Assembly: GCA_965200155.1 (NCBI GenBank)
Contig: CBDATR010000024.1
Location: 288,001 to 352,000, forward strand
Source of the DNA: Nitrosopumilaceae archaeon
GTDB lineage: Archaea; Thermoproteota; Nitrososphaeria; Nitrososphaerales; Nitrosopumilaceae
Direction: 5' to 3'
DNA: 64,000 nt
Position numbers and translations under genes: made by a program. Every line of letters starts with the position of its first letter. The stretch's first letter is position 1. Under the pieces are notes generated by a model. It had not been told where the DNA came from. It saw only the letters and a list, made by a program, of their open reading frames with translations, and ran no database searches. Positions 14,846 to 61,593 of this stretch are shown here, piece by piece.

Positions 14846-14955
14846 GGCTCATCACCTGCAAAGTCAGAGTGGGTACGCTATGCTGACTTGCTTGGTGCAC
14901 GATTCCATGCCGCTGCTCGGCTCATCACCTGTAAAGTCAGAGTGGGTACGCTATG
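14846..14955. repeat. 37-bp direct repeat, 36-bp unique insert, 37-bp direct repeat (CRISPR-like single-spacer unit inside an IS)
   Basis: GGCTCATCACCTG(C/T)AAAGTCAGAGTGGGTACGCTATG at 14846-14882 and 14919-14955; the paralog near 37085-37125 has a single copy and no insert. Confidence 0.95.
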
Positions 14956-36556: not shown

Positions 36557-37490
36557 TGTAATGTATGAAAAGTCGGTCCGCTAGTCATTGGTATCTCGCT
36601 CCATCCATTTTGTATCATTTGCTCTAATTGTCTGGGTCGCCTTTTTATTCCTGGAGTGGTGTTTCACCGTTATCTATATCCAGTGAGAAGTGCAATCTTC
36701 TCTCATTGTAGTAGTCGATATAATCCCGGAGACTGTCATAATGCCATATCACATCCTCAATCATTCCATGGAAGCGCTCCAGTTTGCCATTTGTCTGCGG
36801 GTGGTATGGCCTGGAATTGATTAGTATGATGTCTTGATCCAGCAGTTCTTCCTAGAATAGCGTGTGTTTCCAGTTCTTTTTGCCCTTTTATTGTCCTGCG
36901 AGACACGCGCCGTTATCCAAGATGCAGGGGCGCCGAATCGTTTCATTGCCAGTCTCAGTAATAGAACGGTGTTCTCTGAGGTTGCATGCTAGAATAGTGC
37001 CGCTCCGACGATGCACCTAGATGCATCATCTATGAGATTCAGTCCCCTGAAGCGCTCATCTTTCATTACATGCCAGTGCCACATTGCATTGGAATATTTA
37101 CGCTCATAGCGTACCCACTCTGACTTTGCAGGTGATGATCCTGCCGTACCGTTCTTTTTCATTATGCGATATACTGCGCGATATATTGTAATTCTGTCTA
37201 AGCCTCTTTGCAATACGTACTACTCCGGCGGGATCCTTGCCGTATGTTTCAGTTACCATTCGTATCTGGGTGGCGGTGATTGGTATCATGGGCCTGCCCA
37301 TCTTTACTCGAGTCGTTCCCGTCCTCTGGTTCACAATCTTTGTACGTGTCTTGTCTCAGGTCTTGAGCTATTTTGGTGACAGCAACACCTCTTTTGTCTT
37401 GATTCCTCTGTTATTCTCTTTACCATATGGCTTGTGCAATCTGAACTACTGTACGCCGGATCTAAGCGGACTTACTTTTCGTACTATTGA
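36557..37490 (-). mobile_element. IS481-family-like relic copy 2 with 15-bp TSD
   Basis: TGTAATGTATGAAAAGT end; GCTACCCTCATCTAA at 36542-36556 and 37491-37505. Confidence 0.9.
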
Positions 37491-37539
37491 GCTACCCTCA
37501 TCTAACACAAGCTATATTCTAGTGCATATTTGCTATTGT

Positions 37540-38391
37540 ATGATTATGTGCAGTAGTAGGCCGCGAATATCACCCATAGTCAAATGGGCCGGTGGCAAGG
37601 CAAGACTGGCAGATACGTTGCTTGGAATGCTGCCAGACCGTTTTGATACATATCATGAACCGTTCGTAGGCGGCGGCTCTATGCTGTTTAGGCTTATTCA
37701 GAAACAAACTAGCCTATTGTGTTACGCTTCTGACATGAATCAAGAATTGATCATAACCTACGAATGCGTCAGAGATGATCTGGAACAATTACTGGAACTA
37801 TTGCAGGCCCATAAACGCGCATTCATGGACAATCGGGAAGAGTACTATTATGATGTCCGTGCCCAGAATCCCTCCAATCGTGTGGAGATAGCTGCTAGAC
37901 TCCTATTTCTGAACAAAACCTGCTTTAATGGACTGTATAGGGTGAATGGTAGGGGTCAGTTTAACGTACCAATGGGCAGTTACCAGAATCCGGATATAGT
38001 GCGCGAGAAGAATCTTCGCAAGATGAGCCATTTTCTGAATAGTTGCAACTGCTCCTTTCAGGCTGCGGATTTTGAGACTGCGTTGGATTATGTAGAACCT
38101 GGCAGCTTTGTATATCTTGATCCACCATACCAGCCCATATCCAAGAACAGCTTTACTACGTACACTTACCCAGATTTTCCTTACGATGATCTGTGTAGAC
38201 TTGCTCGCGTATGCTGGAACTTGGATGCCAGTGGTTGCTATGTGATGCTCTCAAACTCTTGCTCGGAGAAAGTAAAACAACTATTCTCCGAAAATCCTTG
38301 GCATACTACATCATTGAAGGTTCATCGTATGATAAATTCTGATGGTTCCAACCGCACTGGGCACTGTGATTTGCTAATACGAAATTATTAG
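37540..38391 (+). CDS. Orphan Dam-family (D12 class) DNA adenine methyltransferase
   Basis: KWAGGK, EPFVGGGS, FNGLYRVN, YLDPPY; no adjacent endonuclease. Confidence 0.93.
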   Translation: MIMCSSRPRISPIVKWAGGKARLADTLLGMLPDRFDTYHEPFVGGGSMLFRLIQKQTSLLCYASDMNQELIITYECVRDDLEQLLELLQAHKRAFMDNREEYYYDVRAQNPSNRVEIAARLLFLNKTCFNGLYRVNGRGQFNVPMGSYQNPDIVREKNLRKMSHFLNSCNCSFQAADFETALDYVEPGSFVYLDPPYQPISKNSFTTYTYPDFPYDDLCRLARVCWNLDASGCYVMLSNSCSEKVKQLFSENPWHTTSLKVHRMINSDGSNRTGHCDLLIRNY

Positions 38392-38589
38392 GAATGCTTG
38401 TGTCTTTGCATAAAGCGCCTAGCTGCCATGTTGTGGAAGTATTACTCGCTCACTGGTCTGCAACCATGAAGCATTGTGTACAGAGACAAACTCATACACT
38501 GCGCAACCAGTGTTGACCAAATGAGCGTGTCACCTCTGTGAATCCATTTTTCAGTTCCAATTATATATCACAGACGATAAATCAGCAAT

Positions 38590-38688
38590 GCAGGGATATC
38601 GAAGCTCGGTCAACCGAGAAGGACTCAAGATCAATCATAAGAGATCCTTTCCCTCAGGGGTTCGTGGGTTCGAATCCCACTCCCTGCA
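38590..38688 (+). tRNA. tRNA-Leu(CAA) with a short canonical intron
   Basis: GCAGGGA/TCCCTGC stem; aagga-ctCAAg, ~14-nt insert, atcctt; GGTTCGAATCC. Confidence 0.92.
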
Positions 38689-38706
38689 TTTGTATAGTAC
38701 AAGAGA

Positions 38707-38815
38707 GGTGTATAACAGTCACGCAACGGCGGTGTTCTTTACTGGCCACCAAGTCACTGGATGCCATAAGGGAGATGCGGTGTATAACAGTCACGCAACG
38801 GCGGTGTTCTTTACT
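38707..38815. repeat. 37-bp direct repeat, 35-bp unique insert, 37-bp direct repeat (CRISPR-like single-spacer unit)
   Basis: GGTGTATAACAGTCACGCAACGGCGGTGTTCTTTACT is identical at 38707-38743 and 38779-38815. Confidence 0.95.
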
Positions 38816-38970
38816 CTGGTTACCGGATGATTTGTAATGCTGTCGTGCATTTGGGCGGTTTCTTTGTCATTAAAGTACAGACTACACCTGAAGCATACCC
38901 ATCTGTTGGCCATACTATATGTATGCTGTAATCATTATTAAGACTGGTGTATGATTAGTCGTCGCACTAT

Positions 38971-39297
38971 CTATCTTATCCTGCTACCCATCGGTACTTC
39001 CGAGGACACATCCAGCCAAAAGGGCTTCTCGTCGGCGTCTGCAGCTAGCAACATTGCCTGCGATTCTATCCCCGCAACTTTGCGATGCTCTAGGTTTGCA
39101 AGCACAATCACGGTGCGTCCTGTCATCTCTTCTGGAGTGTAATACTGGGCCCCACCTATTACAACGGTGCGGGTCTCACCGCCCAGGTCTATCACACCCT
39201 GCATTATACGCGTCCGCCCCGGTATATTCTGCGCAGAGACTACTTTGGCTACTCGAATGTCCAATTTAGTAAAATCCTCGTATGAAATTTCTTCCAC
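38971..39297 (-). CDS. tRNA-binding protein (Trbp111/CsaA OB fold)
   Basis: FTKLDIRVAKV, NLEHRKVAGIESQAM. Confidence 0.92.
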   Translation of the reverse strand: MEEISYEDFTKLDIRVAKVVSAQNIPGRTRIMQGVIDLGGETRTVVIGGAQYYTPEEMTGRTVIVLANLEHRKVAGIESQAMLLAADADEKPFWLDVSSEVPMGSRIR

Positions 39298-39696
39298 AAT
39301 GCCAACCGTATAGTGCTTGTATTATATTTTTAGTGCCGCGATGGAAGAATGGTACCGGCCATTGGAACTGGAGTTACGGTTCCGGATTTTAGGCAGGATA
39401 CCCACCACGGCATATTTGTATGAACATACATGCAATATATACTAGTGTGGGATTTGTTGGCAAACAGTTTTCACTTGTACCGGAGCTTAATCCTCATTTT
39501 ATATGGACATTCGTGTCATGTGTGCGCCGTGTTTGGCAGCACGAGCTGACGCTTTGACTGGATTCATGTTCCCACTTGCCTTATCTTACTACGATCCTGT
39601 TGAATGGCCCATTCTTGTTACGGGCATACTGTAGCGTGTTACAGAGGGCGTGACTGCCATCTATGATTAAAAACGCATAAACGGCCAAACTACAAT

Positions 39697-39898
39697 GTAA
39701 CCGATAGGTCGCCCAAGTAATTTTCCCTAATACTGACAAGGTAGAGACTAATCCTGTTATTTTACTACACAGCATTTGTATAAAAGGCAGTCAACATACG
39801 TTAGTGGCAGTGAGGCTTATTCCCTACCAGTTTGTTTGCACTTACCGGATTTTATGTCATGAAAACACGCCTCAATTTGGAGCGACCTAATCAGTCAC
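39697..39898. mobile_element. MITE family 2 (~200 bp, TIR about GTAACCGTTTAGGTCGC)
   Basis: Collinear with 54524-54823 and 43375-43656; no TSD visible. Confidence 0.75.
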
Positions 39899-39951
39899 AA
39901 CTATGATCGGGTTTTGATTTATATTTATGATTACGTCTCAAGCCGCCATAT

Positions 39952-41985
39952 ATGATAGCTGAAATGCTTCCAATCGGTGCCGGAATTGCATCAATATTGG
40001 TCGCAGTAGGCTTGGTTGCGTGGATATCAAAGCAGAACCCCGGAACACCTAAAATGCTGGAAATCTCCGAGGCTGTACGGGTAGGGGCTGCGGCATTTTT
40101 GCGCCGAGAGATGAAGATTATAATCCCTGTGGCCATAGGCTTGTCTGTAATAATAGGTGCCTTTCTGAACTACACCAATGGCATAGCATTTGCGGTGGGG
40201 GCCGCCCTGTCTGCTGTAGCCGGATTAATATCGCTAAAGATAACGGTAAAGGCCGCTGTACGGGCAGCCAACATGAGTGGCGAGGGACTTGGTAAAACTT
40301 TTGCCATGGCTTTTAGGGGTGGCGCCACTGTGGGTCTCATAATACCAGCCATGGCGTTACTGGCCATAACTGGACTGTACATAGCATTCCCGGATCCTAT
40401 TACAATAGCTGGGGTAGGCATAGGCGCAAGCTTGATCGCCTTGTTCATACGCATTGGTGGGGGCATATTCACAAAGGCTGCCGATATGGGGGCAGACTTG
40501 GTGGGAAAGGTGGAGGCAAACATACCTGAGGATGATCCGCGTAACCCCGCTACCATAGCTGATAATGTGGGCGATAATGTGGGCGATGCCGCAGGCATGG
40601 GTTCGGACGTTTATGAGTCGTATATAGTCACTATATTGGCATCCTTGCTGATAGCTGCACTTATCGGGGCACCGGATATTTTCCTGTACCCTATAATGGT
40701 AGGTGCCGCAGGCATGATAGCATCCATAGTGGGTGTGGTTATGGTCAGGGGCAACAATATTACAGACGTCATGTCGCCGCTAAATCGTGCATTCTATGTA
40801 TCGGCGGCCATAGCCATAGCACTTAACTTTGTCTTTATTACACAATTTGTCGGTGGTGATGCCACATACGCGCTGTTTGGTGCCACTGTGATCGGTGTGA
40901 TTTTGGTGCCTGTGATTCAAAAGATTACGGACAGGTACACCAGCTACAAATTTGGACCGGTTAACGAGATAGCAGAATCGGCCAAGTGGGGTTATGCGTC
41001 ACTAACACTGATGGGAATAATCAAGGGGTTGCAGTCCACCGGTCCATTCATGATAGCCTTGGTATCTGCCATCATTATCTCATTTGCTATATCTGCCACC
41101 GCAGCCCCTGAAGGAGCAGACCCGCTACTGTACGGGATATTTGGCACATCACTCACCGCCATGGCCATGCTGAGTCTGGCAGGAATAGTACTTAGTATAG
41201 ATGCCTTCGGCCCCATAGCGGACAACGCGGGAGGGATAGTGGAGATGACCGGCATGGGAGAATCAAATCGTAAGGTCACCGATGAGATTGATGCTGTGGG
41301 CAATACAACCAAGGCTGTTACAAAGGGCTTTGCTATCGCCAGTGCAGCCTTGGCAGCCTTGGCAATGATACAAGCCTTCCAGTTTGAAGCAGCTCATGTA
41401 TTTGAGGGGATGTTGAGTCTGGATTACTCGCTAACAAATCCGGCCGTAGTCATAGGTCTTATAGTTGGGGGGCTGATACCGTTCATTATAACCGGCCAGC
41501 TCATAAACGGTGTCTCGCGCGCGGCAGGCAAGATGGTTGATGAGGTGCGCAGGCAGTTCAAGGAGAATCCTGGCATACTTACAGGCAAAACCAAGCCTGA
41601 TTATGCCAAATGCGTGGACATTGCAACTGTTGCATCAATACGGGAGCTGTGGAAGTCTGCAATTATAGCCATCATATCGCCCATAATATTGGGCATATTG
41701 ATGGGCCCTACCGCGGTGGCCGGACTGCTGATGGGCTCCGTTGTCACTGGAATATTCTTGGCATATCATTTGGCGAATACTGGTGGAGCTTGGGATAATG
41801 CAAAAAAGCTAGTTGAGATGCGTGGCGAGAAAGGCAGTGAACAACACAAGGTAGCAGTAGTGGGAGACATAATCGGAGATCCCTACAAGGATACCGCGGG
41901 ACCGGCGCTTAACACGGTGATTAAGCTCCTGAATACCGTCGCCATTGTATTTGTGCCTGCATTTGTGGCAATCATAATGTTGTAG
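39952..41985 (+). CDS. hppA: Membrane-bound H+-translocating pyrophosphatase (GNTTK suggests K+-independent)
   Basis: DMGADLVGKVE, EDDPRNP, DNVGDNVGD, GDPYKD. Confidence 0.97.
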   Translation: MIAEMLPIGAGIASILVAVGLVAWISKQNPGTPKMLEISEAVRVGAAAFLRREMKIIIPVAIGLSVIIGAFLNYTNGIAFAVGAALSAVAGLISLKITVKAAVRAANMSGEGLGKTFAMAFRGGATVGLIIPAMALLAITGLYIAFPDPITIAGVGIGASLIALFIRIGGGIFTKAADMGADLVGKVEANIPEDDPRNPATIADNVGDNVGDAAGMGSDVYESYIVTILASLLIAALIGAPDIFLYPIMVGAAGMIASIVGVVMVRGNNITDVMSPLNRAFYVSAAIAIALNFVFITQFVGGDATYALFGATVIGVILVPVIQKITDRYTSYKFGPVNEIAESAKWGYASLTLMGIIKGLQSTGPFMIALVSAIIISFAISATAAPEGADPLLYGIFGTSLTAMAMLSLAGIVLSIDAFGPIADNAGGIVEMTGMGESNRKVTDEIDAVGNTTKAVTKGFAIASAALAALAMIQAFQFEAAHVFEGMLSLDYSLTNPAVVIGLIVGGLIPFIITGQLINGVSRAAGKMVDEVRRQFKENPGILTGKTKPDYAKCVDIATVASIRELWKSAIIAIISPIILGILMGPTAVAGLLMGSVVTGIFLAYHLANTGGAWDNAKKLVEMRGEKGSEQHKVAVVGDIIGDPYKDTAGPALNTVIKLLNTVAIVFVPAFVAIIML

Positions 41986-61492: not shown

Positions 61493-61593
61493 TGGCGCCG
61501 GGAGGGAGATTTGAACTCCCGTTCCCTTGCGAGAACGCGCTTTATGGTCCTTGATTTCCAGGCGCGCGCCCTACCAGGCTAGGCGACCCCGGC
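61493..61593 (-). tRNA. tRNA-Ser(GGA) with a short intron
   Basis: GCCGGGG stem; cgcgc-ctGGAa plus insert; long variable arm; GTTCAAATC; encoded CCA. Confidence 0.92.

Follow-up and report, generated by a model that had tools for sequence, protein, structure and literature searches.

The stretch of DNA analysed here (the window) is 64,000 nucleotides long and corresponds to C24:288001-352000 of a metagenome-derived archaeal assembly of 2,380,067 bases in 51 contigs (87.64% complete; contigs are given as C numbers). The host encodes an AmoA of the archaeal type (PF12942, 2e-115). A tRNA gene on the plus strand (38590..38688; Rfam RF00005, 41 bits) and a gene for a protein with a tRNA-binding domain on the minus strand (38971-39297; PF01588, 1.3e-22) flank a convergent (3′–3′) intergenic gap, with a Dam-like methyltransferase upstream and an H+-pyrophosphatase further downstream. 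The unit under study lies in this gap, beginning 19 nt past the tRNA 3′ end, and interrupts no gene. ARAGORN missed the tRNA, as it did a second one at 61496-61593 on the minus strand (Rfam, 40.5 bits); both genes are ∼98-99 nt long and probably carry introns.

The unit consists of a 37-mer, GGTGTATAACAGTCACGCAACGGCGGTGTTCTTTACT, that is present at 38707..38743 and, letter-perfect, at 38779..38815 (no strand is assigned to either copy), separated by a 35-bp insert, GGCCACCAAGTCACTGGATGCCATAAGGGAGATGC, at 38744..38778; the period is 72. Allowing up to three mismatches, the window contains two matches to the 37-mer, both perfect, against a mean of 0.00 in 100 shuffles. Across the whole assembly (2,380,067 bases), the 37-mer occurs in these two copies only, with 0 matches for a reversed-pattern control. 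The window and genome searches thus bear out the sequence-only reading, which had described a perfect 37-bp duplication around a 35-bp insert.

The insert has a single match elsewhere in the genome, at C10:205388-205422, which is identical at 35/35 positions and whose minus strand corresponds to the plus strand of the window. This source is the 3′ part of a 241-aa open reading frame (ORF) encoding GTP cyclohydrolase III (PF05165, 1.1e-48), and the protein contains ...ALATKSLDAIREMRD.... The peptide ATKSLDAIREM, from which the insert had been taken to be a coding fragment, forms part of this host protein. Because the identity between unit and source spans 38 nt (window 38742-38779), all splits from a 34-bp duplication with a 38-bp insert to 37/35 fit, including 36/36. 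The borders of the unit are therefore uncertain by a few bases, and the true staggered-cut distance was probably 36.

A sister unit is found in the same window at 14846..14955 (no strand assigned), with 37-bp copies that differ by one mismatch around a 36-bp insert. An earlier comparison of the two units holds: both duplications are 37 bp, the inserts are 36 and 35 bp and the targets share 15/37 positions when aligned without gaps. The 14846 unit is inside a degenerate multi-copy element, which gave no Pfam match, and has five empty paralogues at 93-96% identity. An empty paralogue of its target is seen within the window at 37105..37141 on the minus strand, as a single copy with one mismatch. 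Alignment of the 14846 and 37105 loci leaves a single clean 73-column gap, which equals one copy plus the insert.

Units of this kind are spread across the genome. A first scan for direct repeats that were solitary and non-tandem (exact over at least 20 nt, at offsets of 30-200) returned 105 pairs, 52 of which have a period of 71-75, while the remaining 166 offsets together account for 53. Mismatch-tolerant extension, retaining pairs whose duplication measured 34-40 nt and whose insert measured 32-40 nt, took 100 candidate pairs at periods 66-82 to a set of 64 units; a tandem protein repeat at C10:346-349 kb was left out. The expectation that two units in one window would mean many genome-wide was correct, with 64 in 2.38 Mb. 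The period is 72 in 27 units, 73 in 18, 74 in eight, 75 in six, 71 in four and 78 in one. Duplications measure 37 bp in 29 units and 36 bp in 21, followed by 38 (five), 39 (four), 40 (three), 35 (one) and 34 bp (one). Insert lengths centre on 36 (18 units), 37 (16) and 35 bp (15), with 34 (six), 38 (three), 39 (three), 33 (two) and 32 bp (one) making up the rest. The two copies are identical in 49 units and differ by one mismatch in 13 and by two in two, and the local sequence that is duplicated differs from unit to unit among all 64.

At three loci (C24:237593, C24:500916 and C9:70400), two inserts lie between three target copies. Two further units adjoin at C24:352098-352298, 98-298 nt past the window end, where the second target covers the final 16 nt of the first one as well as the flank downstream of it; stray integrations can cluster. 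The ∼25 small contigs of the assembly (1.6-11 kb) have a GC content of 35-42%, compared with 45-52% for the large contigs, and may represent contamination, a mobile element or a further replicon. One of them, C51, bears one unit and is the source contig for another insert.

Reconstruction of the empty state (flank, one copy, flank) identified uninterrupted paralogous sites across both junctions for 26/64 units, all of which sit in multi-copy elements. The filled state is derived. The load of repeated elements in this genome is very high, with up to 76 paralogous matches for a single 156-nt query site (e.g. C13:35858 and C34:161231), and one of these elements is an IS66-family transposase gene. 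The flanks of the 38707 unit are single-copy in the genome and no paralogous site exists. Nor was an empty allele found in 40 other genomes, whose kinship ranges from shared genus to shared order; these align over the tRNA only and, in a few, also over the downstream gene (∼71% identity), and the intergenic DNA is unalignable. An exact scan of metagenome contigs with the 37-mer gave 0 stretches. Logan contigs stop at 38736 and restart at 38786, with no joints reported; since the 37-mer exceeds the word size, filled and empty alleles are indistinguishable in these contigs, which give no sign of transcription either.

We consider it negligibly probable that the unit arose by chance, by replication slippage or as an assembly artefact. 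Slippage does make short direct repeats, and a metagenome-derived assembly in 51 contigs invites caution. However, the shuffle expectation is 0.00 and the insert comes from another contig instead of from adjacent sequence. The stretch was also found in seven public runs from two studies (runs labelled sponge metagenome), in which 0.97-0.99 of the sampled words from window positions 37500-40000 (unit included) are present, and relatives whose genomes are single contigs have units of this class too.

The inserts provide a second view of their origin. One insert is common to four units, all in copies of one repeated element, so the 64 units hold 61 distinct inserts; these are all different and share no ends. 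Matches elsewhere in the host's own genome were found for 34/64 inserts, mostly at 100% over the full length. These features bear on whether the units are footprints of a CRISPR-unrelated transposon, a MITE with an unusually long target-site duplication, a casposase or another integrase. Casposon target-site duplications are short. Target duplication around an insert is a hallmark of transposition, and casposons are known in this archaeal group, according to the available part of the literature on them. Yet the inserts are not copies of one element: they differ, have no ends in common and in 34 of 64 cases are plain copies of scattered host sequences. Furthermore, the only Cas1-family gene found is a CRISPR Cas4/Cas1 gene, and the lengths of duplication and insert equal those of the array repeat and spacers, shifting along with them in a related genome (G075, see below). 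We therefore regard a mobile-element origin as exceedingly unlikely.

Whole-genome repeat scanning revealed a single large CRISPR array (C9:71011-92087) with 289 copies of a 36-nt repeat, ATTTCCGCAGCCTAACGGTTGCGGCCTCATTGAAGG, and no second array or repeat type. Its spacers are 35 (16), 36 (85), 37 (101), 38 (63) or 39 nt (15) long, with eight outliers; that is, 280/288 canonical spacers are 35-39 nt, giving periods of 71-75. Upstream of the array are a gene for a 549-aa Cas4/Cas1 fusion without internal stops (Cas_Cas1 3.4e-91, Cas_Cas4 9.9e-19) and, adjoining the array, a gene for a 91-aa Cas2 (1.1e-18). The fusion scored 710.7 bits against the NCBIfam model cas4g_cas1g (NF049935), for which the cut-off is 560. 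The array has a leader of ∼166 bp, and its far side encodes Cas3g (1.2e-212), Csb2 (2e-84), Csb1 (3.1e-20) and the I-G Cas3-extension protein. The locus is a type I-G system. A search for the Csx17/Cas8g large subunit gave no match in the host, and control genomes likewise gave no match. At C9:99400-110000, IS5-family transposase fragments adjoin csb1, where the I-G large-subunit gene is expected, and beside them are matches to DUF1156, DUF499 and a DrmD-like helicase, families annotated as anti-phage, that fall well below model cut-offs. The assembly (87.64% complete) yielded no Cas1 homologue beyond the Cas4/Cas1 fusion.

The C9:70400 locus named above is part of this operon. Its two stray spacers, among three 37-mer copies at C9:70400-70624, lie exactly at the cas4/1–cas2 junction; copy 1 contains the cas4/1 stop, the TTG start of cas2 falls in copy 3, and both frames are open. 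The adaptation module has apparently integrated into its own operon.

The repeat–spacer–repeat format of the 38707 unit, with a spacer that matches host DNA exactly, could also describe a genuine tiny orphan array with its own 37-nt repeat, horizontally acquired or carried by a mobile element and yielding functional crRNA; a regulatory self-targeting guide is conceivable. The sequence-only reading had itself named the 37-mer being the repeat of a true array elsewhere as an outcome that would overturn it, and this is excluded by the presence of only two copies in the genome. Across the 64 units, moreover, all of the 'repeats' are different, and the empty sister paralogues show the 'repeat' to be plain local DNA that became duplicated where it stood. 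An 8-bp hairpin is formed by the canonical repeat (-14.3 kcal/mol, z -2.85), whereas no hairpin was found in the 37-mer (-4.2 kcal/mol, z +0.88), and its 3′ end is not of the ATTGAAGG type seen in the canonical repeat. There is neither a leader nor an adjoining cas gene at the unit. An orphan array is thus a most improbable explanation. Because the 37-mer does not form the canonical hairpin, processing into crRNA is unlikely and the unit is probably silent; we predict that no crRNA is made from it.

Together, these results make it very probable that the 38707 unit is an off-target spacer integration by the resident type I-G Cas4/Cas1–Cas2. This reading is supported by the geometry of the unit, the source of its insert, the empty sister paralogues, the open cas4/1 and cas2 frames and the co-occurrence of such units with I-G systems (see below). 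The proposal that one ruler-type integrase acted at both window units stands. It had been tied to a possible promiscuous DNA-recording system, but a separate system of that kind is not supported: the resident type I-G Cas4/Cas1–Cas2 acting off-target is the simplest integrase, since the duplication, once chance extension is allowed for, is as long as its 36-nt repeat and the insert falls within the spacer range. Catalysis would fall to this complex.

In the mechanism that we propose, Cas4/Cas1–Cas2 would capture a ∼36-bp host fragment from the GTP cyclohydrolase III gene. Two transesterifications would join the 3′ ends of the fragment to opposite strands of a non-CRISPR site, ∼36 bp apart, a spacing set by the same ruler that operates across the 36-nt repeat. 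Gap repair by the host would then leave a copy of the ∼36-bp target at either end of the insert.

When bases shared by protospacer and target are allowed for, the minimal duplication is 36 in 12/25 uniquely mapped inserts, a cluster that fits a 36-nt ruler. The measured duplication is more often 37 than 36 (29 vs 21 units), which is beyond chance extension of a strict 36-nt ruler, and therefore either wobble of the ruler or microhomology at the ends has to be assumed. Identities of 1-3 nt between protospacer flank and target end, seen in 11 and 12 of 25 cases, are likewise above chance expectation. Period 72 is commoner among the stray units (27/64) than in the array (85/288). Reading-frame selection was rejected as the cause of this excess, or of the excess of 37 over 36, because the period modulo 3 (0/1/2) is alike in units within long ORFs (9/6/2) and in the others (25/12/10).

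The mode of 37 instead of 36 and the completeness of the assembly (87.6%) would also be compatible with off-target integration by the Cas1–Cas2 of a different CRISPR system, encoded in an unassembled part of the genome or by a lost or visiting element. We judge this highly improbable. The genome scan showed neither a further array nor another type of repeat, minimal duplications cluster at 36 (12/25), and two further I-G genomes have units at their own periods.

These genomes come from a survey of relatives, in which Cas4g/Cas1g scored above the cut-off in 7/61 sampled genomes of the family. In G065, from another genus, Cas4/Cas1g is present and 800 kb of sampled sequence gave 19 candidates, or ∼14 units once five protein tandem repeats (75-nt) are subtracted. 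At least three of its inserts match elsewhere in the sample, and its array has a related 36-nt repeat with periods of 71-75. In G075, where Cas4/Cas1g is also present, the solitary pairs in 380 kb plus an array piece peak at period 71 (15/61, with 37/61 at 69-75), equal to the modal period of its own array. Two genomes of the same genus as G075 have no Cas4/Cas1g match: a 400-kb sample of G010 contained 0 units, and 0/4 solitary pairs in 400 kb of G052 were at 66-76. Units are thus present in 3/3 I-G genomes and 0/2 Cas1-less samples, which supports the off-target reading as a pattern among few and related genomes, outside any statistical test.

The mean best identity between the sites and the canonical repeat is 14.05 of 36 (null, 12.61 +/- 0.23), or 13.69 of 36 (null, 12.60 +/- 0.25) after collapse to 49 target families. 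Hence, the targets resemble the canonical repeat weakly, yet above random sites. Target choice is non-random, because the same exact site has been struck repeatedly in paralogous copies, with different inserts. One such site, in the 5′ part of the IS66-family transposase gene (PF03050, 1.3e-34), has received five distinct inserts. The target features put forward from the two window units do not extend to the population. The paired motif AC(9-10)...GT(28-29) is present in 2/64 units, namely these two; GG at positions 1-2 is seen in 8/64 units on the plus strand and 9/64 on the minus strand, and 13/64 inserts end in C. A target logo of all sites, centre-aligned and on both strands, shows weak signals with a maximum of 0.23 bits.

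We also examined the sources of the inserts for a protospacer-adjacent motif. In Geobacter, the Cas4/1 fusion of a type I-U (now I-G) system selects a TTN PAM, which 50% of unique naive spacers had, according to the accessible part of that study (PMC6547450). TTN stands beside 9/24 uniquely sourced protospacers here, vs 12.8% in the null (p=0.002), although this Geobacter PAM may not be that of the host. It is absent beside the other 15/24, which counts against the off-target reading, and the 38707 source has it on neither side (GCT precedes it; the downstream side, read as its reverse complement, is CTC). Since only half of the unique naive Geobacter spacers had it, TTN does not strictly define such integrations. 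Unit orientation derived from TTN agreed with that from repeat similarity in only ∼5/9 cases.

Stray and canonical spacers differ in how often they match the host genome. Outside the array, the genome has a match to only 1/288 canonical spacers, and this sole match is to the stray insert at C25:4760, drawn from an overlapping part of one unknown source; no protospacers of canonical spacers were found in the assembly. The C25:4760 insert and canonical spacer 58 (C9:75210) have 26-28 nt in common; one source, presumably foreign, was sampled on two occasions at staggered positions. The difference between stray and canonical spacers fits a purge of self-spacers from the real array (e.g. by autoimmunity) with tolerance at stray sites, and it equally fits stray and canonical sites that draw on different substrate pools. 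Among the uniquely sourced self inserts, 14/24 derive from contig C10, which makes up 22.7% of the assembly (binomial p=1.8e-4). The only Orc1/Cdc6 match in the assembly is at C10:298701-298961, and the C10 bias hints at origin-linked sampling of self DNA.

Stray integration has also affected genes. Once the empty site is restored, 27% of units lie inside an ORF of at least 150 codons, vs 67% of 2,000 random sites; this depletion fits purifying selection against disruptive insertions, and target preference could contribute. Long frames of 495 and 523 codons are broken at C10:229607 and C10:288031, respectively, and at C22:16729 a frame is lengthened in phase from 575 to 599 codons. By comparison, the 38707 unit is an ordinary scar, probably immunologically silent and near-neutral, and it could in principle seed a new array.

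Off-target integration has precedents, described here from the accessible portions of the cited papers. Nivala, Shipman & Church (2018, Nat Microbiol 3:310; cited in 10.1101/148544, PMC7054753 and PMC6698737) reported off-target integration in E. coli that gave rise to 'neo-CRISPR' loci. According to the first of the citing papers (10.1101/148544), their study had only 'circumstantial evidence' from two other species, PMC7054753 notes that rarer off-target events were detected at ∼350x genomic coverage, and PMC6698737 deals with in vitro off-target sites of Pyrococcus furiosus Cas1–Cas2. Like the E. coli neo-CRISPR loci, as far as they are described there, the units in this archaeon have a spacer-sized insert at a non-CRISPR site with a repeat-length target duplication, and they are able to take further spacers, as at the three loci with two inserts. 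The E. coli events involved a type I-E system with over-produced Cas1–Cas2, whereas a native archaeal type I-G system with a Cas4/Cas1 fusion is concerned here, in a natural genome with 64 units against 288 canonical spacers and with about half of the inserts self-derived.

The same partial accounts allow comparison with other systems. The type I-G system of Geobacter sulfurreducens (Almendros et al. 2019, PMC6547450) has a Cas4/Cas1 of the same family, and TTN is enriched by its protospacers, as it is here. Canonical I-G adaptation takes place at the leader–repeat junction, in contrast to the ordinary genomic DNA used here, with ∼14/36 identities to the repeat. Pyrococcus furiosus Cas1–Cas2 (PMC6698737) likewise integrates into non-CRISPR DNA, though that was in vitro, into plasmids and with a 30-bp repeat, while the sites in this study are natural and genomic with far weaker repeat-like features. 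The casposase, a Cas1 homologue described from Nitrosopumilus (PMC8464041), produces a target-site duplication through Cas1-family integrase chemistry, as is proposed for the units here. Unlike the present units, casposons are of kilobase scale with their own ends, and the assembly has no second Cas1 homologue. In the titles and abstract openings screened, no report was found of stray spacers in Thaumarchaeota or sponge symbionts, nor of off-target spacer integration at this scale in nature. The 38707 unit most likely results from a known mechanism, but the group of units to which it belongs is unusual.

Until now, off-target integration has been known mainly from over-expressed E. coli Cas1–Cas2 and from in vitro work. 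Dozens of scars in one genome are a rare natural record of how often the adaptation enzymes misfire. Since crRNAs are probably never made from the stray units, interference does not select among them, and they may show the substrate choice of the integrase in raw form; the signals are that about half of the inserts are self vs none in the real array, the partial TTN bias and the C10 source bias. This makes it testable whether self and non-self are discriminated at acquisition or afterwards, what Cas4/Cas1–Cas2 recognises in a leaderless target, how new arrays are born and whether symbiont pseudogenes are formed in part by CRISPR adaptation.

We tentatively suggest, while considering it somewhat less than an even chance, that the I-G modules of these ammonia-oxidising archaea are intrinsically promiscuous, which would make stray integration a lineage-wide mutational force. 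If so, stray integration would break or lengthen genes, repeatedly strike one IS66-family transposase site, split even the cas4/1–cas2 junction and be able to seed arrays. The silent scars would then be an unselected fossil record of CRISPR adaptation, one in which about half of the captured DNA is self and comes preferentially from the contig that carries the sole Orc1/Cdc6 found. Autoimmunity would remove self-spacers from the real array, hence their absence there.
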